A DNA stretch of 39,225 nucleotides from a virus. Lineage: Duplodnaviria; Heunggongvirae; Uroviricota; Caudoviricetes. A program made the translations under genes and the position numbers. The DNA lies in the IMG/VR virus record IMGVR_UViG_2703718821_000012, positions 1 through 39,225 of that record, one strand, 5' to 3'. Shown here piece by piece: positions 1,390 to 39,225 of this stretch. The notes below the pieces were generated by a model. That model had not been told where the DNA came from. It ran no database searches and saw nothing but the letters and a program-made list of their open reading frames with translations. Position 1 is the stretch's first letter. Each line of letters opens with the position of its first letter.

Positions 1390-1998
1390 TCACGGCTTAA
1401 CCTCCTGCGGCGGTTCTGGTAGCGGCATCCAGTGTGACGGTTTCCACGACGCACCAGGAATTATCCACCCATCATTAGCGTCAGGATGCCCCGGGATGTA
1501 AGTAGCCCATTTCATTCGCCAGTCACCTTTCCTGTCAAACTCCACGGCAACAAGAACGGCTGTTTTGGTATTCGGCATTCGCTCACTACAGCTTATCCAA
1601 CCATCCTTAATGCAATTACCTTGACTCTGAAGCATAGCGGCACGACAGGCGTTCCAGCCTCTCACCTCTGCAATAGCGGCAACAGCATCAACCGCGTACA
1701 TTTTAATAGGGTTAGGCATTGGTTTTTCTTCAGGTACTACTGGCACTGGAGGGGCGGCATAAACAGGAATAACGTCCGATTGCTCTTTATTGCTTTCATC
1801 CGTTAAAGCCCAGAATAATTTTCCAGCCGGATGTTTGAAAATATAAGCAACTGGTTCTGCTTTCAGCGATGCCAGCGCCAACTTGAACGCCTGAAGCTCA
1901 ATGGCACTGTTGGTATCCAGTCCAAACGGTAATTCATCACGATAGGCTTCGTATTCAGCGATAGTTTGCTTCAGCCATTCTTTGGTTAGTTCAGCCAT
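1390..1998 (-). CDS. DUF551-like phage protein
   Basis: 202 aa from MAELTKEWLKQ; C-terminal region GWIIPGASWKPSHWMPLPEPP resembles the DUF551 motif common in enterobacterial prophage early regions (recall). Confidence 0.55.
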   Translation of the reverse strand: MAELTKEWLKQTIAEYEAYRDELPFGLDTNSAIELQAFKLALASLKAEPVAYIFKHPAGKLFWALTDESNKEQSDVIPVYAAPPVPVVPEEKPMPNPIKMYAVDAVAAIAEVRGWNACRAAMLQSQGNCIKDGWISCSERMPNTKTAVLVAVEFDRKGDWRMKWATYIPGHPDANDGWIIPGASWKPSHWMPLPEPPQEVKP

Positions 1999-3480: not shown

Positions 3481-3963
3481 TTATTTGATAAGAAGTGAAG
3501 GTTTCCCAACCTTGAGTTGAGCGCCGGGGATATTTATTCCTGCTTTTAGTTGGTGTTTGATTGCCAGTTTGTCGGCTTTAATTGTCGTTTCAAACTCAAC
3601 GTATTCAGGAGGAAGGGCGCTTGAGTCGATGATTTCTACAATTTCTGACGGTTTGCGGATTGTTACCTGGTGAATACCTGCTCGAATATTTTTCTTGCCA
3701 ACCATTTCAAGCGATGACGCTATATATGATTTGATGCTGTCAATCTTATTTTGAATTACTGCGGCTCGCTCATTCAGCGACTTTGCCTCTTCCTTGAGGC
3801 GTTCAGCATAACCAGATTCATTTTTAATGACGGAAAGAAGTTGCTCTATTTTATCGGTAAATTCTCCTTCCATGCCTTCTATTGTGTCAGCAATCATCTC
3901 TGGCTCTAAATCTGAATCCATCAATTTTGCGTATTCATTGGCTATTTCATATAGTTTGCTCAC
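3481..3963 (-). CDS. Gp157-like phage protein (often linked to RecT modules)
   Basis: About 160 aa; GTG start at 3963 preceded by GGAGG; family assignment from recall of similar prophage proteins next to recT. Confidence 0.5.
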   Translation of the reverse strand: MSKLYEIANEYAKLMDSDLEPEMIADTIEGMEGEFTDKIEQLLSVIKNESGYAERLKEEAKSLNERAAVIQNKIDSIKSYIASSLEMVGKKNIRAGIHQVTIRKPSEIVEIIDSSALPPEYVEFETTIKADKLAIKHQLKAGINIPGAQLKVGKPSLLIK

Positions 3964-4849
3964 TGGCAACCTCCAGTTTCGCTTTGCATTCTATGTAAAT
4001 GGCTTGTACGTTCTGCTGCAATTTCATTCCAGATGTCAGGCGATATGCTTCTGCAAAATATCGCTTCAAATCATCCATGTTTTCTGCCTGAGCCATTTCA
4101 TCACAAAGAAGTTGTGCTTTTTCCATAATTTCCTGCTGGCGTTTCCGTTCATCTTCGCGGATATCTTCCTCTGATTTGTGCGGCATAACTGGTTCCTGAT
4201 GCATACCTTCATCTTCGTTAAGCAGGTGAATGGCATTATCCAGTCGCTGGGCTTTAGGCCAGTATTTGCTGGCGCGTTTAACTATTGTTTTACGCGCCAT
4301 CTCTTCCCAGAATGTCTTCCACGGTCCATTCTTTGCCTTGCTCGTTGCTTCCACAGCTTTAATTTCTGCCAGACTCATTTCTTCAGTGAGGTAGTCACCA
4401 TCTGCTGTTTTAACCGTACAATAACCACCAACAATAGAGCCTCGCTCACCAAATGCGTTGTATTTGTGGGTTGGTGCTGAATCAAGGCCGTTTGATTCAT
4501 AGGTGTCGTTTGAGTACACCAGTTTGCATTGCCCCCACTTAATTGATCCTGTCGACTGTGCAAGGTGAAGTAATCCCATGTAACTGATATCAAGGCACAC
4601 CATGCCGTCGCGAGGAACCAGATAAGCCAGTTTGCTGGCCGGGTTTAAGGTGATGCCGATCGCCGCAACATTGATGATGGCGTTCTGTGCGCTGGTTGGA
4701 TTTGCCAGTGCTGTTTTAGCCAGGTAATCGTTTTTCTGGAAATACTGAATTGCAAACTGGCTTTCCTTAGCCCATGTCACCGTCTGTTCAGTCAATGCTC
4801 CGCAGAATAACTGCTCTTGCTGTTTAACGAATTCAACGATATTGCTCAT
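3947..4849 (-). CDS. recT: RecT-family single-strand annealing recombinase
   Basis: 300 aa; motif NGPWKTFWEEMARKTIVKRASKYWP matches the conserved RecT core (compare Rac RecT NGPWVTHWEEMAKKTAIRRLFKYLP). Confidence 0.85.
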   Translation of the reverse strand: MSNIVEFVKQQEQLFCGALTEQTVTWAKESQFAIQYFQKNDYLAKTALANPTSAQNAIINVAAIGITLNPASKLAYLVPRDGMVCLDISYMGLLHLAQSTGSIKWGQCKLVYSNDTYESNGLDSAPTHKYNAFGERGSIVGGYCTVKTADGDYLTEEMSLAEIKAVEATSKAKNGPWKTFWEEMARKTIVKRASKYWPKAQRLDNAIHLLNEDEGMHQEPVMPHKSEEDIREDERKRQQEIMEKAQLLCDEMAQAENMDDLKRYFAEAYRLTSGMKLQQNVQAIYIECKAKLEVASEQTI

Positions 4850-5157
4850 GCAGCTTCTCCATAAATATGTCTACGTTTGAATATTGCGAAGGCATATTCA
4901 GCCTTAACTCTTTCGGTTATTGCATCCCAGAACCATTCAGCGGCTTTTTCCTGATAGTTACAGTCATCATCTTCCAGCCAGTCGATAGCGTCCTTAGTGT
5001 GTTCATCTGGTTTATATGAGCGAAGCATTTCGCTTATTGGGTCGCAACGTTTGCAGAGGCGATCAACTTCACTGTTGATTCGTTCGTAATCATCATCGGT
5101 AAAACTTGCGATGATTTGCGATATTTCACGCTTATCATTCAGAGTCAGAATCATCAT
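4846..5157 (-). CDS. Hypothetical acidic protein upstream of recT (103 aa)
   Basis: ATG at 5157/5154 preceded by GGAG; acidic, Trp-rich; position equivalent to anti-RecBCD genes in other phages (inference only). Confidence 0.5.
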   Translation of the reverse strand: MMILTLNDKREISQIIASFTDDDYERINSEVDRLCKRCDPISEMLRSYKPDEHTKDAIDWLEDDDCNYQEKAAEWFWDAITERVKAEYAFAIFKRRHIYGEAA

Positions 5158-5238
5158 CTTTCTCCTGTTCTTTGTGCTGATTGAGCATTTCTTTCATCTG
5201 ACGAATGAATTCTTCGTCTGACCATGTATCCGCAATGC

Positions 5239-5403
5239 TCATTGCTTAACGACCTTAATCAGTTGAGTTACCTCAATGATGTCCTCGCATAAATCAGAGT
5301 ACTGAAATGGGCCGCAGTTGTGAGAGTTAGTGCGTCGGGCGAAAGCCATTCTTCTAAGTTCTTTCAGGGCTTCTTCCAGTTCTTCGTAAGTTGGTTTTTT
5401 CAT
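5239..5403 (-). CDS. Hypothetical small protein (54 aa)
   Basis: ATG at 5403 overlaps the CIII-like stop (ATGA); translation MKKPTYEELEEALKELRRMAFARRTNSHNCGPFQYSDLCEDIIEVTQLIKVVKQ. Confidence 0.35.
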   Translation of the reverse strand: MKKPTYEELEEALKELRRMAFARRTNSHNCGPFQYSDLCEDIIEVTQLIKVVKQ

Positions 5404-5570
5404 GGCTGTACCTTTTGATTCAGAAACTCAACAAGACGATCCAGCAAGCTCTTAACGCGAGGTTGTTTAAAGTCTGCTCCGGTTAAAATATTTTTTCGTG
5501 AATGCTGCACCGATAAAATTGGGTTGAAAGGGCGAACCGATGCCGCCCCTGCAATAGCGAACTGTTGCAT
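5400..5570 (-). CDS. cIII: CIII-like protein (probable FtsH inhibitor)
   Basis: 56 aa starting MQQFAIAG (lambda CIII starts MQYAIAG); amphipathic stretch KSLLDRLVEFLNQ; correct position in the pL operon. Confidence 0.5.
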   Translation of the reverse strand: MQQFAIAGAASVRPFNPILSVQHSRKNILTGADFKQPRVKSLLDRLVEFLNQKVQP

Positions 5571-5764
5571 AGGATGCTCCTTCTGTTTGATTGCATAACG
5601 AAAACGCCTCGAGTGAAGCGTTATTGGTATGCATATAAAAAGGCCCTCACACTGGAGGGCAAAGAAGATTTCCAATAATCAGAACAAGTCGGCTCCTGTT
5701 TCGTTACGAGCGACATTGCTCCGTGTATTCACTCGCTGGAATGAATGCACAGTGCTTATTCGTA

Positions 5765-6235
5765 CTAATAAGACACCCAGTTTTCTGTTTCTTGGTTGTG
5801 TCCAAAGTTATATTCAATATCTGGTGTTGATGTATCAATATTCTTCATCCCATCAACAAGAGTTGATACAACAGCCAAATCTTGTTTGATTCTCATTAAA
5901 TGGTATTTCTTCCGGCGCAATAAACTTTCAATGGCAAGTTTCTTCGTCGGGAATGCAAAAGATCTTTCTGCATTTTTTGCTACTTTCTTAATTGCATATC
6001 TATTTCTCCTTTGTTTCCATTCCTGTAACCACTGATTTGGTGTTGGTTTAAAATTAACAATCCAATGCGCAGGAACCAACCATGCATAATGCTCTGTCTG
6101 ATGAAAAGCTATATATTGAAGTGCGAATATTTTGATTCCATCTTCTTCAACTGTCGCCTGGAATCTCCAGAAAACAGGCATTCCATCATGTTCAGTTTCT
6201 GATTCAGGAAAAGGTACGCTCCATGATTTTGTCAT
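5765..6235 (-). CDS. Hypothetical basic protein (156 aa), AT-rich accessory gene
   Basis: ATG preceded by GAGGTGAG; AT-rich codon usage versus neighbours; sits between N and cIII where lambdoid phages carry accessory and exclusion genes. Confidence 0.6.
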   Translation of the reverse strand: MTKSWSVPFPESETEHDGMPVFWRFQATVEEDGIKIFALQYIAFHQTEHYAWLVPAHWIVNFKPTPNQWLQEWKQRRNRYAIKKVAKNAERSFAFPTKKLAIESLLRRKKYHLMRIKQDLAVVSTLVDGMKNIDTSTPDIEYNFGHNQETENWVSY

Positions 6236-6278
6236 ATCTCACCTCAAATAATTCAGTGCGGTGTTTATTCTCTTGTTT

Positions 6279-6309
6279 ATGCCAAAAATAAAGGCCGACT
6301 ATGCGGCCT
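6279..6309 (-). terminator. Rho-independent terminator candidate (minus strand)
   Basis: Minus-strand hairpin AGGCCGCATAGTCGGCCT followed by TTATTTTTGG immediately after the 6314..6736 gene. Confidence 0.5.
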
Positions 6310-6313
6310 GAAA

Positions 6314-6736
6314 TTACTTAACCAATGATGCTGCATATTCAATTAGGAATAACTTAGGTGCAAGCCAAATCTTCAACCATTCGAAATTGAAGGCGATAAT
6401 TGAAACGCCAATAATTGAGCCAAATACAGGAGCAAATACGGTGCATATATCGTAATAAAACGAAGATATAAAATATCTATCATTTGGACATCCATCGAAA
6501 GACGTCCATCTCTCGCCATTATTTCTTGCCGTTCTTGCAAAACTAGGAAGTTTTATTGCTGCAATTAAAAGCAACAACCCAGTCACTTGGGAAAGTGCGC
6601 TATGGACAAAACTCCATATTAGCAACTGATGAACAACATCAGGAATCTGTGCCTGGCTAAATGAAACAGCCGCGTCTATTCCATTGCTGGCTTTTTGCAG
6701 TAGTTCTACGAGAATCTTGTTTGCTTGTTCTTCCAT
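6314..6736 (-). CDS. Two-TM membrane protein (140 aa), possible SieB-like exclusion protein
   Basis: ATG preceded by GAGGTGA; hydrophobic segments VTGLLLLIAAIKLP and VFAPVFGSIIGVSIIAFNF; immediately downstream of N; AT-rich. Confidence 0.55.
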   Translation of the reverse strand: MEEQANKILVELLQKASNGIDAAVSFSQAQIPDVVHQLLIWSFVHSALSQVTGLLLLIAAIKLPSFARTARNNGERWTSFDGCPNDRYFISSFYYDICTVFAPVFGSIIGVSIIAFNFEWLKIWLAPKLFLIEYAASLVK

Positions 6737-6744
6737 ATATCACC

Positions 6745-7071
6745 TCAAATAAGTGGTTTGCTGCCTAATTTCATTTTCTGGCGACCAACACAAGTCACAC
6801 CCATTTCACTGCGTGGCTTGCTGTACCATGTGCGCTGATTCTTGCGTTCAATACGTTGCAGGTTGCTTTCAATCTGTTCGTAGTATTCAGCCAGCACCGT
6901 AAGGTCTATCGGATTCAGTGCGCTTTCTACTCGTGATTTCGGTTTGCGATTCAGCGAGAGAATAGGGCGGTTAACTGGTTTTGCGCTTACCCCAACCAAC
7001 AGGGGATTTGCTGCTTTCCATTGAGCCTGTTTCTCTGCGCGACGTTCGCGGCGGCGTGTTTGTGCATCCAT
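6745..7071 (-). CDS. N: Antitermination protein N
   Basis: 108 aa MDAQTRRRERRAEKQAQWKAANPLLVGVSAKPVNRPILSLNRKPKSRVESALNPIDLTVLAEY..., near-identical to lambda N including the Arg-rich RNA-binding motif. Confidence 0.92.
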   Translation of the reverse strand: MDAQTRRRERRAEKQAQWKAANPLLVGVSAKPVNRPILSLNRKPKSRVESALNPIDLTVLAEYYEQIESNLQRIERKNQRTWYSKPRSEMGVTCVGRQKMKLGSKPLI

Positions 7072-7228
7072 CTGGATTCTCCTGTCAGTTAGCTTTGGTT
7101 GTGTGTGGGAGTCGTAGTCCTGAACGAAAACACCCCGCAATGGCACATTGGCAGCTAATCCGGATTCGCACTTCCGGCCAATGCTTCGTTTCGTATCACA
7201 CACACCAAAGCCTTCTGCTTTGAATGCT

Positions 7229-7259
7229 GCCCTTCTTCAGGGCTTAATTTTTAAGAGCA
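7229..7259 (-). promoter_or_regulatory. nutL (boxA and boxB)
   Basis: Minus strand reads TGCTCTTAAAAATTAA GCCCTGAAGAAGGGC: boxA-like element plus boxB hairpin as in lambda nutL. Confidence 0.8.
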
Positions 7260-7298
7260 TCACCTTCATGGTGGTTAGTGCGTCCTGCTGATGGCTTA

Positions 7299-7371
7299 AA
7301 ATTACAAGAAAGATTGTATGTTGTAAACAAGAAATATTGTAAAAAGAGGAGTGAAAAACAAACTCCGTTGT
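7299..7371 (-). promoter_or_regulatory. OL operator cluster with pL
   Basis: Three ACAA-N6-TTGT sites (7304..7317 ACAAGAAAGATTGT, 7327..7340 ACAAGAAATATTGT, 7358..7371 ACAAACTCCGTTGT) matching 434-type operators; candidate leftward -35 TTTACA / -10 TAATTT. Confidence 0.6.
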
Positions 7372-7421
7372 TTTTAAACGGAAAATAGTTTGTTTTTTGG
7401 TTATCGAAATTGAGGTGGGGA

Positions 7422-8774
<1,353 letters not shown>

Positions 8775-34737: not shown

Positions 34738-34760
34738 ATGCAACCACATCATGGTTGCAT
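34738..34760. promoter_or_regulatory. Inverted repeat ATGCAACC-N7-GGTTGCAT, candidate Mnt operator
   Basis: Perfect 8-bp arms between divergent mnt and tailspike genes. Confidence 0.45.
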
Positions 34761-34785
34761 CATATCATTCGTCTGGAGCAATGAA

Positions 34786-36606
34786 ATGTCAGATATCACC
34801 GCAAATGTTGTGGTAAGCATGCCTTCGCAACTCTTCACTATGGCGCGTTCTTTTAAAGCCGTGGCTAATGGCAAAATTTATATCGGAAAAATTGACACTG
34901 ACCCGGTAAATCCTGAAAACCAGATTCAGGTCTATGTTGAGAACGAAGACGGTTCTCACGTTCCTGTTGCACAGCCAATCATCATTAACGCTGGCGGGTA
35001 TCCTGTATATAACGGACAGATTGCCAAGTTCGTAACTGTGCAAGGCCATTCTATGGCTGTTTATGATGCGTACGGTGTGCAGCAGTTCTATTTTCCGAAT
35101 GTGCTGAAGTATGACCCTGACCAACTTAGGCAGGATCTTGCAGGACCAGATGGATATTATCTTATCCCATCTCTTATACAGAAATGGAAAGATGATGGTG
35201 ATTTACGTGGTTGGGGAATAGGAGAAGATGCATTTAACGCAGCTATGACTGAGATATCAGAAAGTGGCGGCGGCGTTCTTCATGTGAATGAAGACATCAT
35301 TTTTAGTACAATTCCTATCATGCATAAGCCTGGGGTTACTGTTTACTGGAATAATCATCGTGCAATTGTTCCTGCCGGTTTGAGTTCAACATATGCGTAT
35401 ATAATGGATGGTGGTGCCGACACGCCTGTATACGATAATACCGATCATTTCACGCTAGCTAACAAGACGAATTGTTATAATCTGCATCTTGAGGCATCTG
35501 ACTATGCTGTCGGTGTGAATGCTATTGGTGTATGCGTTAGACATTGCTACGGATATACGTATGAAGGAGGGGCAATTATTGGTTTCAATAATGGTGGTTA
35601 TTACGATGAATTATGCTATGAAGGTAAAGTTAGTAAATTTACTATGGTTGTGTCCAACTCTAGAGCGGAACAATCAATAGGATTAAACAGTAATACTACG
35701 GATACTTGGTATTCGGAAATTTCCCCTGTTGGTTACGCATATGGCGGTAAAATGAATAGGAGTGGTAATAGCTTAGATAAGTTTCATTCTTGGGGGAATA
35801 CTATCGATGATCGTGTTGGCTTAATGGGTAAAATGCATGTGGGATTGTGGGTTACTGAAAACGGAGGCTTTTCTACCTACACCAATCTAATTTTGGACAC
35901 TCCAGTAAGAAGAGATTCTAGTTCAGGTCCATCTAGAACTAATGGTGGTGTAGGTTTGATAAATGATGCGTGGGATACCAGTTTTGACGGTGTAATCGTC
36001 TCATGCTCTAAGAATGATATGGTGGCAAAAAGCACCCTACCAGTAATAACCTCATCACAAGGTGTAACCTATAAAGATCTTTCAGTTAGTAATCCTGAAT
36101 ACGCAACTGACATATGGGTATCATTTGAAAATAATTCTGGAATAGCTTTAAATCATATTATTGGATATGGATATGCACAATTGATGCGTAATGGCGCTGG
36201 CATAAGCTCAACATCAGGAGCTGCTTTCGCTCCTGCAAATGGAGTTACCATTTCATTACAGACACTATCTTCTGGAATTTGGTATAACACATTAAACTTT
36301 TCCATCAAGACAACAATAACAGCCACATCATCTGCATCAAGCGATGTAATTGTTAATATTGCTCCTATGTATGGAGTGAGAAATGGATTTGGAGGGGCAG
36401 TTAAGGGAGGGCTAGATGCTTTCTTTTATGCAACCGCAAATACAGCAAAACAACTATATGATGTTTATGTTGAAGTAACCTCTGCTAACACCGCCAAGTT
36501 TTTATTAACATTCATTGACGGAACAACAAGATACGCCAGATGGACAGATGTATCTAACGGATCTGCAAGGGCTATTTCTGTATCATGTAATATAGATGTT
36601 AAATAA
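34786..36606 (+). CDS. Tailspike protein: P22-type head-binding N-domain with divergent receptor-binding domain
   Basis: 606 aa; N-terminus [71 protein letters not shown] matches P22 gp9 head-binding domain; remainder unrelated to P22 gp9 and AT-rich. Confidence 0.85.
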
Positions 36607-36648: not shown

Positions 36649-37755
36649 CTACTTGTTAAACCTGCACTCTATGTGTTTATAAGTAAATGCAGATGCTAAG
36701 ATCGTTATTGAAAGACAAATCACAGAGTATATTATTAACTGAGTTGTGTTTGTTTCAGACAGATTAACAAACTTAGAGGCTATTCTGTAAAATACATGCA
36801 GCACTGGTTGATGCAGTAAGTAAATGCTATAGCTAATTTCCCCTAAGAAAGCGATAGACGGAATGCTTAATAACCTTGGTTTTAGCACAACGCAAGACGC
36901 AAACATAAGTGATATCATGATAAATCGATAAAAGCTATATTGTTTTACATCGAAATAGAATGACATATAAAACAAAAACGCAAAAACTATATATATAACT
37001 GCTCTAAGTGATGTTTTTTCTATGTTTATTTCTTTGATTTTTGCGCAAAGAGCCCCAGCTACAAAGTACGACCACAACACTTTATCTTCATAGAAATCGT
37101 TGATCAATACAAAGCACCCAAAAGCAATTACCATGTACTTGAATTTTTTAGTATAGAGAGCAGTCGCTAAGAATGGGATAGATGCATAAAACTTCCACTC
37201 ATATGGGAGTGTCCACAATACTATATTTAAAGTAGCATCTCTATGTGCGCCCCAGTATAGCTCAGTTCCAAAAAAACCAAACCCAAATATTTTAAGTAAT
37301 TGAGTGACAAATAAAGGAAGGTCTAATTTCCCTAACATCTGTGAAAAATATATTACAGATATTAAAGTAGCGGTAAATAGATATAATGGAACTAATCTCT
37401 TTATTCTTTTTGCGTAAAATGATGTAAAGTCTATTTTATTATTTGAAAGTATTTTTGAAGAGAACAGAAATCCAGTTATGCAAAAAAATATCTGAACACC
37501 CAAGGCACCAGATTGGCTGAAAAGATAAAAGTTAGAGTAATCAATATTCTTAGTTTTTATCAACATATCACCAATGGCGTAAGCAGAGTGGTTGATGAAA
37601 ACGGCGATACATGCAAAACCCCTGAGTCCTTCAATGTACTGAATTTTGCCCTGATCTGTAGACTTTCTAATGAAAATAGATGTTGCCATTATTGGTACAG
37701 CAAGCATGACCAAATAGATGCAAAAGAAAGACAATTGGTAGTTATAAAGCGGCAT
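36649..37755 (-). CDS. oac: Integral membrane acyltransferase, family 3 (O-antigen acetyltransferase-like)
   Basis: 368 aa; about 10 hydrophobic segments; motif YIEGLRGFACIAVFINHS near N-terminus typical of acyltransferase-3; strongly AT-rich; next to tailspike and attP. Confidence 0.75.
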   Translation of the reverse strand: MPLYNYQLSFFCIYLVMLAVPIMATSIFIRKSTDQGKIQYIEGLRGFACIAVFINHSAYAIGDMLIKTKNIDYSNFYLFSQSGALGVQIFFCITGFLFSSKILSNNKIDFTSFYAKRIKRLVPLYLFTATLISVIYFSQMLGKLDLPLFVTQLLKIFGFGFFGTELYWGAHRDATLNIVLWTLPYEWKFYASIPFLATALYTKKFKYMVIAFGCFVLINDFYEDKVLWSYFVAGALCAKIKEINIEKTSLRAVIYIVFAFLFYMSFYFDVKQYSFYRFIMISLMFASCVVLKPRLLSIPSIAFLGEISYSIYLLHQPVLHVFYRIASKFVNLSETNTTQLIIYSVICLSITILASAFTYKHIECRFNK

Positions 37756-38067: not shown

Positions 38068-39225
38068 CTATGACACCTTCTCATCAAGCCAATCCGCCCA
38101 CCACTGCATCATTTCTCTGCGCTTATCGAGATACTGCGCATGGTTGTAAATACCGCGCACAGATCCGCCGTTGGCATGTGCCAGCTGCACTTCAATAGCG
38201 TCAGCAGGCCATTCGTGCTCGTTCATAATCGTGCTGAATTCATGCCTGAATCCGTGACCGCTTTCCAGACCCTCATAGCCGATTTGTTTGATCACAAGCA
38301 ATACCGCGTTCTCGCAGATTGGCTTCTTCTTATCGTTGCGCCCGGCAAAAACAAACTCTGAGACTGGTTTGGTGATTGAGCTTAGCGTAGTGAGAAGTTC
38401 AACCACCTGGTCCGACATCGGGACCACATGAATCTTGCGTCCCTTCATCACACTGGCGTCGATGGTGATAATCCTGTTTTCAAAATCGACGTTCTTCCAT
38501 TGCATGGAACGAAGCTCTTTCGTTCTTAGGGCTGTGTAGCGTAAGACTTTGGTCGCAATGAGCGATACGATACTTCCTGAAAATGTTGCCAGTGCTTTGT
38601 TGAATGCCGGGATCTGGTCTGCTGGAAGAAACGGGAAGTTCTTCTTGCGGTATCCTTTCATGGCGTCTGCAAGGTCAGGTGCCGGGTTATATTTAGCCCT
38701 TCCGGTGACAATAGCGTAACGAAAAACCTCGCCGCATCTTCTGCGGGCTTTATTGGCTCGTTCCATTGCACAGCGATCTTCAAATCTGCGGATTACTTCC
38801 AGCAGTTGCATCGGCTCAATATCCTGAATCTCAAGACCGCCGATGATGGGCAAAATGTCGTCATCAAACATTTTGGCAAGTTCAGTCGCATAGCCTACTG
38901 ACCAGACTTGCTTCTTGTGCTCGTACCATTCCTTGTATATTGCACTAAAGGAATTGTTGTTAGACGAAGCCTTTTTCACTTTTACTGGATCGATGCCAAC
39001 CGAGATGTCTTTCCTCGCAGTCCATGCCTTATCCCTTGCTTCCTGCAAAGTCATAAGCGGATATTTTCCGACAGTCAGGATTTTCTCCTTACCGTCAATC
39101 TTGTAGCGAAGCTGCCATACCTTTTTCCCTGATACAGGGACATAAAGGTACAGGCCATTACCATCGAGTAGGCGGTATGGTTTTTCTTTCGGCTTTGCTG
39201 CTTCAATCTGCTTAACGGTGAGCAT
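38068..39225 (-). CDS. int: Tyrosine integrase, P4-like family
   Basis: 385 aa starting MLTVKQIEAAKPKEKPYRLLDGNGLYLYV (typical P4-type N-terminus); catalytic-region motifs HGFRHEFST and C-terminal Tyr; ATG is the last 3 nt of the window. Confidence 0.9.
   Translation of the reverse strand: MLTVKQIEAAKPKEKPYRLLDGNGLYLYVPVSGKKVWQLRYKIDGKEKILTVGKYPLMTLQEARDKAWTARKDISVGIDPVKVKKASSNNNSFSAIYKEWYEHKKQVWSVGYATELAKMFDDDILPIIGGLEIQDIEPMQLLEVIRRFEDRCAMERANKARRRCGEVFRYAIVTGRAKYNPAPDLADAMKGYRKKNFPFLPADQIPAFNKALATFSGSIVSLIATKVLRYTALRTKELRSMQWKNVDFENRIITIDASVMKGRKIHVVPMSDQVVELLTTLSSITKPVSEFVFAGRNDKKKPICENAVLLVIKQIGYEGLESGHGFRHEFSTIMNEHEWPADAIEVQLAHANGGSVRGIYNHAQYLDKRREMMQWWADWLDEKVS

Follow-up and report, generated by a model that had tools for sequence, protein, structure and literature searches.

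The segment analysed here is located between the antiterminator gene N and cIII in the virus record IMGVR_UViG_2703718821_000012, whose 39,225 nucleotides (positions 1 to 39,225) are referred to as the window. It contains two genes on the minus strand, ORF-A (open reading frame A; 6314..6736, 140 amino acids, aa) and ORF-B (5765..6235, 156 aa). On the basis of the alignment of their junctions and of a survey of 80 loci, ORF-A and ORF-B, with the anatomy described below, are very probably two unrelated and independently mobile single-gene cassettes stacked in a hypervariable slot, and not the two-gene island proposed in a preliminary description of this DNA. Both would be transcribed from the early-left promoter pL during the lytic phase, ORF-A as a membrane-level factor of takeover or competition and ORF-B as a binding protein involved in takeover or counter-defence. 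Taken as a whole, this explanation is considered the best one, with a probability of about 0.6. The finding is a new arrangement of catalogued, functionally uncharacterised cassette families in a known hotspot.

Three types of junction are relevant. In HK97, 933W and Huey, N and ORF-B are joined via TTATTTGAGGTGAGATATG, and the 3' end of N (...CCACTTATTTGAGGTGAGATATG) runs directly into ORF-B. In Sf6 and CUS-3 the order is ral, terminator, ORF-A, terminator and the boundary sequence bsq4 with the terminator tL2A, the terminator after ORF-A being the same as that of the window. In the window, the end of N (...CCACTTATTTGAGGTGATATATG) leads into ORF-A, which is followed by its terminator, by ...GAATTATTTGAGGTGAGATATG leading into ORF-B, and by bsq4-like sequence; in the junction alignment, the window thus combines the HK97/933W/Huey type with the Sf6/CUS-3 type. 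Related to this, a 13-nt direct repeat, TTATTTGAGGTGA, flanks the ORF-A cassette (the gene and its own terminator) on both sides, with two exact copies in the window versus 0.05 expected. The upstream copy (6740..6752, minus strand) takes in the stop codon of N together with the ORF-A Shine-Dalgarno sequence, and the downstream copy (6239..6251, minus strand) includes the Shine-Dalgarno sequence of ORF-B. Such flanks are expected if the ORF-A cassette was inserted into, or can be lost from, an N|ORF-B junction like that of HK97, 933W and Huey. No record covering at least 80% of the N-ORF-A-ORF-B-cIII stretch was found among 50,697 phage records and 5,426 complete Escherichia coli genomes.

The survey of viral contigs is consistent with this view. 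All of the 80 loci carrying an ORF-A relative keep the order N, (gp36), (ral), ORF-A, (ORF-B, P22 gp17, an Sf6-gp33-like gene or ea10/ssb) and cIII/kil, where the genes in brackets are variable occupants, and in about a third of them an N gene is directly fused, at its 3' end, to ORF-A. ORF-B is found immediately 3' of ORF-A in six loci only, and two different N types are represented in the four of these that include N. Conversely, ORF-B is carried by 83 phage records, and in all seven phage or prophage loci examined it lacks an adjacent ORF-A. In other lambdoid phages the slot between N and cIII holds sieB, ral, P22 gp17 (PF17420), an Ea10/ssb-like gene and other cassettes, in agreement with the preliminary description, which had placed the segment in an accessory region known for sieB and ral. 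An O111 prophage has N, sieB (on the strand opposite to N), ral and ORF-B; therefore, ORF-B does not replace the classical occupants of the slot but is found alongside them.

Relatives of both families are also present in a non-lambdoid lineage, namely the 47-kb siphophages Salmonella phage NX263, Citrobacter phage K1M and Salmonella phage CF-SP1 (a Swiduovirus), which are related to each other. They share a short early operon made of a ParB-like gene, two small genes and a beta-clamp-like gene, in which an ORF-B homologue is the first gene in NX263 and an ORF-A homologue is the last one in K1M and CF-SP1. The two families use variable slots of one operon there, and never together in the phages examined.

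The segment has a lower guanine plus cytosine (GC) content than its surroundings, as had been noted from the sequence: 38.5% in ORF-A, 36.5% in ORF-B and 37.7% in the whole segment, versus 49.4% in N, 45.0% in cIII and 47.1% in the window. These figures place it in the 4th percentile of 972-bp windows, the minimum of which is lower (32.4%). From the comparisons made, ORF-A and ORF-B are real intact genes, because they show full-length matches to PHROG profiles (ORF-A, residues 1-140 aligned to positions 1-137 of the 137 in phrog_3054, E 4.7e-52; ORF-B, residues 1-156 of 156, phrog_1636, E 1.1e-110), because both exact proteins are present in a few public E. coli genome records with consecutive locus tags (OHC98_07430/07435), and because the differences between ORF-B and its copies in HK97, 933W and Huey are mostly synonymous (6-7 synonymous versus 2-3 non-synonymous changes). 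Between the N stop codon and the start of ORF-A there are 8 nt, and the Shine-Dalgarno sequence of ORF-A overlaps that stop codon. The position and the main properties of the two proteins given in the preliminary description, that is a 140-aa protein with two hydrophobic segments directly after N and a basic, Trp-rich protein of 156 aa, are borne out by the present data.

ORF-A is predicted to be a two-transmembrane (two-TM) hairpin protein. Its hydrophobic stretches extend approximately over residues 38-69 and 93-126, and the AF2 model, built with 36 homologues (mean pLDDT 75), is a helical hairpin with a helix at residues 2-72, a loop, and helices at 93-116 and 119-139. The protein is 92-94% identical, over its full length, to the Sf6 gene 34 protein and to CUS-3 ECRS218_0047. 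The family comprises 478 clusters at E<=1e-3, and includes relatives in Swiduovirus-type siphophages, the N4-like Ithacavirus, the 147-kb myovirus Justusliebigvirus, and Vibrio and Pseudomonas phages; the distant relatives are located in early, replication or recombination regions. Two juxtamembrane motifs, QIP(D/E)V..QLL before the first TM helix and APK...E.A..L after the second one, are invariant out to the N4-like, Vibrio and large-myovirus homologues, and the family-wide invariant positions are F26, I31-P32, V34 and Q37-L38 on the first side and A-P-K, L131, E133, A135 and L138 on the second.

Three main allele classes of 149, 121 and 140 aa can be distinguished. Between classes the N-terminal 44 residues are 89% identical and the C-terminal 24 residues 86%, versus 19% in the centre. 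However, 28-38% of the identical codons in the termini differ synonymously between the classes, and this terminal identity of the protein despite synonymous divergence points to selection on the ORF-A protein and not to recent DNA exchange. When alleles of the same class are compared, the termini have about 0.3 amino-acid polymorphic codons for each synonymous one, and the centre has about 1.3. The searches for known relatives were negative: ORF-A gave no Pfam match at E<=1 and nothing in NCBIfam or PADLOC, its profile found nothing informative among PDB sequences (none below E 0.49), and Foldseek searches of the model against PDB and BFVD returned no annotated match, the best BFVD matches being unnamed or uncharacterised phage proteins.

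ORF-B, on the other hand, has no hydrophobic segment (maximum KD19 0.56). It is a predicted soluble, basic protein (pI 9.07, 21 K+R) with 7 Trp (4.5%), and corresponds to HK97 gp45, 933W ST933Wp19, phi24B vb_24B_11c, Min27 ORF20 and the H-19B equivalent, with 98-99% identity in 79 of the 83 phage records. A full hidden Markov model scan of 1.84 billion representatives yielded 81 proteins (E<=1e-3). About 60 of them are full-length and have a single domain, with approximately 130-170 aa; the others are short fragments and two long artefacts. Domain fusion (the Rosetta-stone approach) was rejected for ORF-B, as these two long matches (P0165 and P0201) are due to low-complexity repeats. The family is characterised by an N-terminal strand-turn-strand, Y[RK]...G[ILV]...ET.C, and by the motif K..K...RFAF.TKE.A...L..RK..Q..HLKR followed by a predicted long helix. 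Its members typically occupy one of the first three positions in an early operon that adjoins a divergent junction, with SSB, PD-(D/E)XK and other nucleases, methylase, Lar, DnaB, beta-clamp-like and helix-turn-helix (HTH) proteins as neighbours. When neighbour-family enrichment around remote relatives was analysed, no partner recurred, and the genes seen were generic ones of early functions, replication and recombination. No credible match was found in Pfam or NCBIfam for ORF-B itself, and Pfam searches on 48 diverse relatives gave only scattered chance matches, none to HTH, AP2 or Arm. PDB sequence searches with the profiles of this family gave nothing below E 0.49, and a further profile search from the family alignment found no named relatives. 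Against PADLOC-DB 2.0 the only match was Cas1_II (E 0.016, 12.5 bits, 45 residues), which is taken as chance. The homology and structure searches that had been suggested for both proteins thus led to PHROG families, none of them with an assigned function.

The two genes are separated by an intrinsic terminator (6283..6309, minus strand), the first one 3' of N in the window, which consists of the stem 6309-6292 (AGGCCG-CATAGT-CGGCCT) followed by TTATTTTT, to 6283. By its hairpin and T-run it is canonical, although the term "strong" used in the preliminary description overstates a 6-bp stem (predicted energy -10.1 kcal/mol, z = -2.2). This terminator, 6309-6283, travels with ORF-A in CUS-3 and Sf6. 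In the family as a whole, a terminator follows 41 out of 55 distinct genes within 70 nt (75%), versus 114 out of 1,011 other ORFs of the same loci (11%; odds ratio 23), counts which are phylogenetically non-independent. Eleven sequence variants of these terminators are found, belonging to about five unrelated hairpin types, and one of them is a compensatory variant (AGGACG...CGTCCT).

A scan for the sigma-70 consensus detected no promoter-like site on the minus strand between pL and ORF-B, and the same kind of scan found none upstream of gp34 in Sf6. Because neither gene has a recognisable promoter, both would be expected to be off in the lysogen, with transcription from pL starting upon infection or induction; we infer that neither ORF is placed for prophage expression, and the early lytic position of ORF-B, as judged from the operon, argues against a prophage-expressed role in defence. 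ORF-A would be made together with N, with no need of antitermination, because it lies upstream of the first terminator, and ORF-B would require N-mediated read-through of that terminator, because it lies behind it. The mechanistic conclusion with the best support, considered rather probable for this phage, is that both are lytic-phase pL genes, N-independent in the case of ORF-A and N-dependent in that of ORF-B; by contrast, in HK97 and 933W ORF-B is the gene that precedes the first terminator. The separate transcriptional control that had been suggested for the two genes can be retained in the sense that the terminator most plausibly makes ORF-B, and not ORF-A, dependent on N, but separate promoters were not seen in the consensus scan.

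In Sf6, gene 34 has a terminator-like hairpin on each side, the first following ral and the second following gp34 itself, and tL2A comes next (2146-2167, 1656-1671 and 1506-1527, minus strand), and no promoter-like site was found between the hairpins that flank gene 34. The pL operon appears, from these hairpins, to be punctuated by a terminator after nearly every accessory cassette.

With regard to function, ORF-A would be an inner-membrane hairpin whose working parts are the conserved juxtamembrane motifs, both on the same face of the membrane. It may act as an early factor of membrane-level takeover or competition, most likely blocking the entry or the development of secondary phages, or alternatively neutralising a membrane-associated host function. 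ORF-B would be a cytoplasmic, basic, single-domain early protein, which most likely binds nucleic acid or a host protein and may serve as a host-takeover or counter-defence factor. These functional classes are proposed only tentatively. A bolder proposal, which is regarded as doubtful, is that the ORF-A family represents an unrecognised and widely distributed class of early phage inner-membrane effectors, ORF-B being an independently new fold that binds nucleic acid or components of defence. If this were true, the invariant motifs QIPDV..QLL and APK..LIEYA would engage a conserved target in the envelope or in the membrane-proximal part of the host, carried on a fast-evolving two-helix anchor, and ORF-A could, for example, provide a new mechanism of superinfection exclusion or disarm a membrane-based defence.

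Other explanations have to be weighed against these proposals. SieB, the superinfection exclusion B protein of lambda and P22, is expressed from the prophage and aborts infection. The preliminary description had considered ORF-A as a SieB-like abortive-infection candidate, which in its full form would be expressed by the prophage and abort superinfecting lambdoid phages. The resemblance is real in general terms, as both are small membrane proteins of the N-proximal region of lambdoid phages, ORF-A has two hydrophobic segments in the same general slot, and its low GC content and own terminator recall those of morons. However, the Pfam SieB model (PF14163) recognises the control SieB of the O111 prophage, from the same slot (2129-2611), with 104.2 bits (E 6e-30), whereas ORF-A gave no match to SieB or any other Pfam model at E<=1 nor at E<=0.01, and the hhalign comparison of the ORF-A family with O111 SieB reached a probability of 0.3%. 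Moreover, ORF-A is inside the pL operon, on its strand and 8 nt after N, with no promoter-like site, whereas the O111 sieB is opposite to N (and shares its region with ORF-B); and ORF-A has homologues in the early lytic regions of N4-like, large (about 147 kb) myovirus and Vibrio phages. A SieB-like role is therefore considered highly improbable. Almost as improbable is that ORF-A and ORF-B form one two-component unit, either a membrane effector with a cytoplasmic sensor or regulator, or a toxin-antidote pair. The recurrence of the ORF-A-ORF-B adjacency in six of the 80 loci, with varied N types and downstream genes, would fit such a unit, as would the consecutive locus tags of the exact proteins in the same E. 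coli records and the use of the same short Swiduovirus-like operon type by both families, though in different phages. Nevertheless, 74 of the 80 ORF-A loci have no ORF-B, the seven ORF-B loci without an adjacent ORF-A include HK97, 933W and Huey, between the two genes there are a terminator and clean recombination junctions, and no single phage examined has both in the Swiduovirus operon.

It is also conceivable, but quite unlikely, that ORF-A modulates the envelope or lysis, as an antiholin-like protein, a factor of cell division or membrane physiology, or a protein anchoring the replication or recombination of phage DNA to the membrane. Its predicted two-TM hairpin shape is like that of class II holins, its neighbours in Vibrio, large-myovirus and lambdoid genomes include genes of recombination or replication (DUF2800, ATPase/endonuclease, RecT/Erf), and the confinement of conservation to the juxtamembrane motifs fits a conserved binding partner. 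Against this, no holin or other Pfam model matched at E<=1, the gene is in an early operon far from the lysis cassette, and no neighbour recurred consistently in the few distant phage types that were examined. Somewhat less unlikely is the possibility that ORF-B serves the programme of the phage itself, as an early DNA-binding regulator or an accessory of replication or recombination, without targeting host defences. The protein is basic and has a long predicted helix, it often heads early operons upstream of DnaB, beta-clamp-like, ParB-like or SSB genes, and its RFAF.TKE.A motif may resemble the strand-helix junction of AP2 or arm-type DNA-binding domains. Nevertheless, its presence/absence polymorphism among similar lambdoid phages is atypical for a core regulator, the 48 members searched had no HTH, AP2 or Arm match in Pfam, and the PDB sequence search gave no match.

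Several points weigh against the explanation by two stacked lytic-phase cassettes of takeover, competition or counter-defence. The terminator counts of the ORF-A family share phylogenetic history, and the absence of promoters comes from a consensus scan only, which would miss weak, activated or non-sigma-70 promoters. The Sf6-type arrangement places ORF-A behind the terminator that follows ral; therefore, N-independent expression of ORF-A would be specific to the arrangement of the window and not a rule of the family. Neither protein has a function assigned by experiment, by homology or by a match of fold. Finally, two ideas about ORF-A were dropped: diversifying selection on its centre, since the data fit relaxed constraint, and a topology based on the positive-inside rule, since the K+R counts are too even (2.3 in the N-tail, 5.2 in the loop and 2.7 in the C-tail), so that the conserved termini may be periplasmic or cytoplasmic.

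The comparison with the closest known systems clarifies how the two genes behave. ORF-A shares its downstream terminator and its slot in the pL operon with Sf6 gene 34 and CUS-3 ECRS218_0047, but the gene follows ral and a terminator there and is fused directly behind N here. ORF-B shares its ribosome-binding site and the downstream boundary sequence and terminator with the copies of HK97 (gp45), 933W, phi24B and Min27, all annotated as hypothetical; in those phages it comes directly after N, whereas here the ORF-A cassette and its terminator are interposed. A classical moron is an autonomous promoter-gene-terminator insert, as found in HK97-type phages. ORF-A resembles such morons in its presence/absence polymorphism, its low, deviant GC content and the terminator directly after the gene. 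However, it has no promoter of its own detected by the consensus scan and its start is coupled to N, so that, by its layout, it behaves like a cassette within the operon rather than an autonomous transcription unit.

T4 Imm is a membrane protein of superinfection exclusion made early by a virulent phage. ORF-A is like T4 Imm, P22 SieA and HK97 gp15 in being a small inner-membrane phage protein, although this is an analogy only, as the search of ORF-A against Pfam at E<=1, Imm-type models included, detected no homology. More generally, neither ORF had a credible Pfam match at E<=1 when Ral, P22 gp17 (PF17420) and T4 Imm-type models were tested (we take Ral and Imm models to be part of Pfam), and a control gp17 from the same slot scored 185 bits with PF17420. 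Literature searches found no study of either family, and neither is mentioned in the paper that describes SieA (PMC10883804) or in an accessory-gene screen preprint.

As for the rest of the window, its gene content is that of a temperate phage or prophage of P22-like (Lederbergvirus) type, which has 434-type immunity and an N of the lambda type. This assignment is made because it contains a P22-type tailspike head-binding domain, an O-antigen acyltransferase-like gene adjacent to a tyrosine integrase, RecT, NinG, a 434-type cI/cro pair, lambda-type N and cII, and cIII. The pL operon, inside which the ORF-A/ORF-B segment lies, is on the minus strand in the order pL/OL, nutL, N, ORF-A, terminator, ORF-B, boundary sequence with a tL2A-like terminator, and cIII. 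Two 14-bp palindromes of 434 type, ACAAnnnnnnTTGT (7340-7327 and 7317-7304, minus strand), can be read in the sequence as OL-type operators; the same layout is annotated as OL/pL in Sf6, and the pL promoter presumably overlaps them (7304..7340). The nutL site (7229..7259, minus strand) is made of a boxA-like sequence, TGCTCTTAA (7259-7251), and a boxB hairpin, GCCCTGAAGAAGGGC (7243-7229), which we take to be identical to the boxB of lambda; the equivalent site is annotated as nutL in Sf6. A plus-strand "terminator" reported by the terminator scan at 7229-7243 is this boxB hairpin on the minus strand. N itself (6745..7071, minus strand) encodes a lambda-type antiterminator of 108 aa (MDAQTRRRERRAEKQAQW...), and its counterpart bears the annotation N in the phages and genomes that matched. 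Downstream of ORF-B, the conserved mosaic boundary sequence, known as bsq4 in Sf6, extends over 5603..5760 (minus strand) with two terminator-like hairpins, 5660-5643 and 5622-5603, the former being the counterpart of the Sf6 terminator annotated as tL2A. It is followed by cIII (5400..5570, minus strand, 56 aa; phrog_550 at 2.3e-18), the next conserved gene of the operon. No RNA family of Rfam was matched within 5200-7500.

On the 3' side of cIII, where kil is usually located, there are ORFs of 54 aa (5239-5403, minus strand, phrog_32687) and 103 aa (4846-5157, minus strand, phrog_3486), followed by the RecT gene (3947-4849) and a Sipho_Gp157 gene (3481-3969). An Acyl_transf_3 gene (36649-37755, minus strand, E 2.5e-34) is placed between the tailspike gene (34738-36606) and int (38068-39225), and its position beside the integrase makes it likely to be an O-antigen acetyltransferase module of lysogenic conversion; Sf6 has its O-antigen acetylase, Oac, at the same position. 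Another ORF (7422-7898, minus strand, approximately 134-158 aa, with a probable start at an internal Met near 7826) occupies the place of rexAB, directly 3' of the 434-type cI. This ORF has a match to phrog_2651 but none in Pfam, its N-terminus is hydrophobic and signal-like, and a terminator (7383-7363) comes after it; the counterpart of the ORF in phage Huey is labelled "PagP-like". As it is placed for co-transcription with the repressor in the lysogen, it is a better candidate than the pair between N and cIII for a conversion or defence function expressed by the prophage.

The value of these results is practical and not conceptual, since both families are common and had no function assigned in the annotation or the literature searched. 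ORF-B adjoins N in many Shiga-toxin phages (933W, H-19B, phi24B) and in HK97, and ORF-A is spread over temperate and apparently non-temperate phages of Enterobacteria, Vibrio and Pseudomonas. The analysis corrects a tempting mis-annotation of ORF-A as SieB-like, and indicates that the place to look for its phenotype is the juxtamembrane motifs rather than the variable loop. Besides, the phage described here, in which the first terminator after N is preceded by ORF-A and followed by ORF-B, would offer a clean natural system for a membrane protein co-expressed with N in the first minutes of infection.

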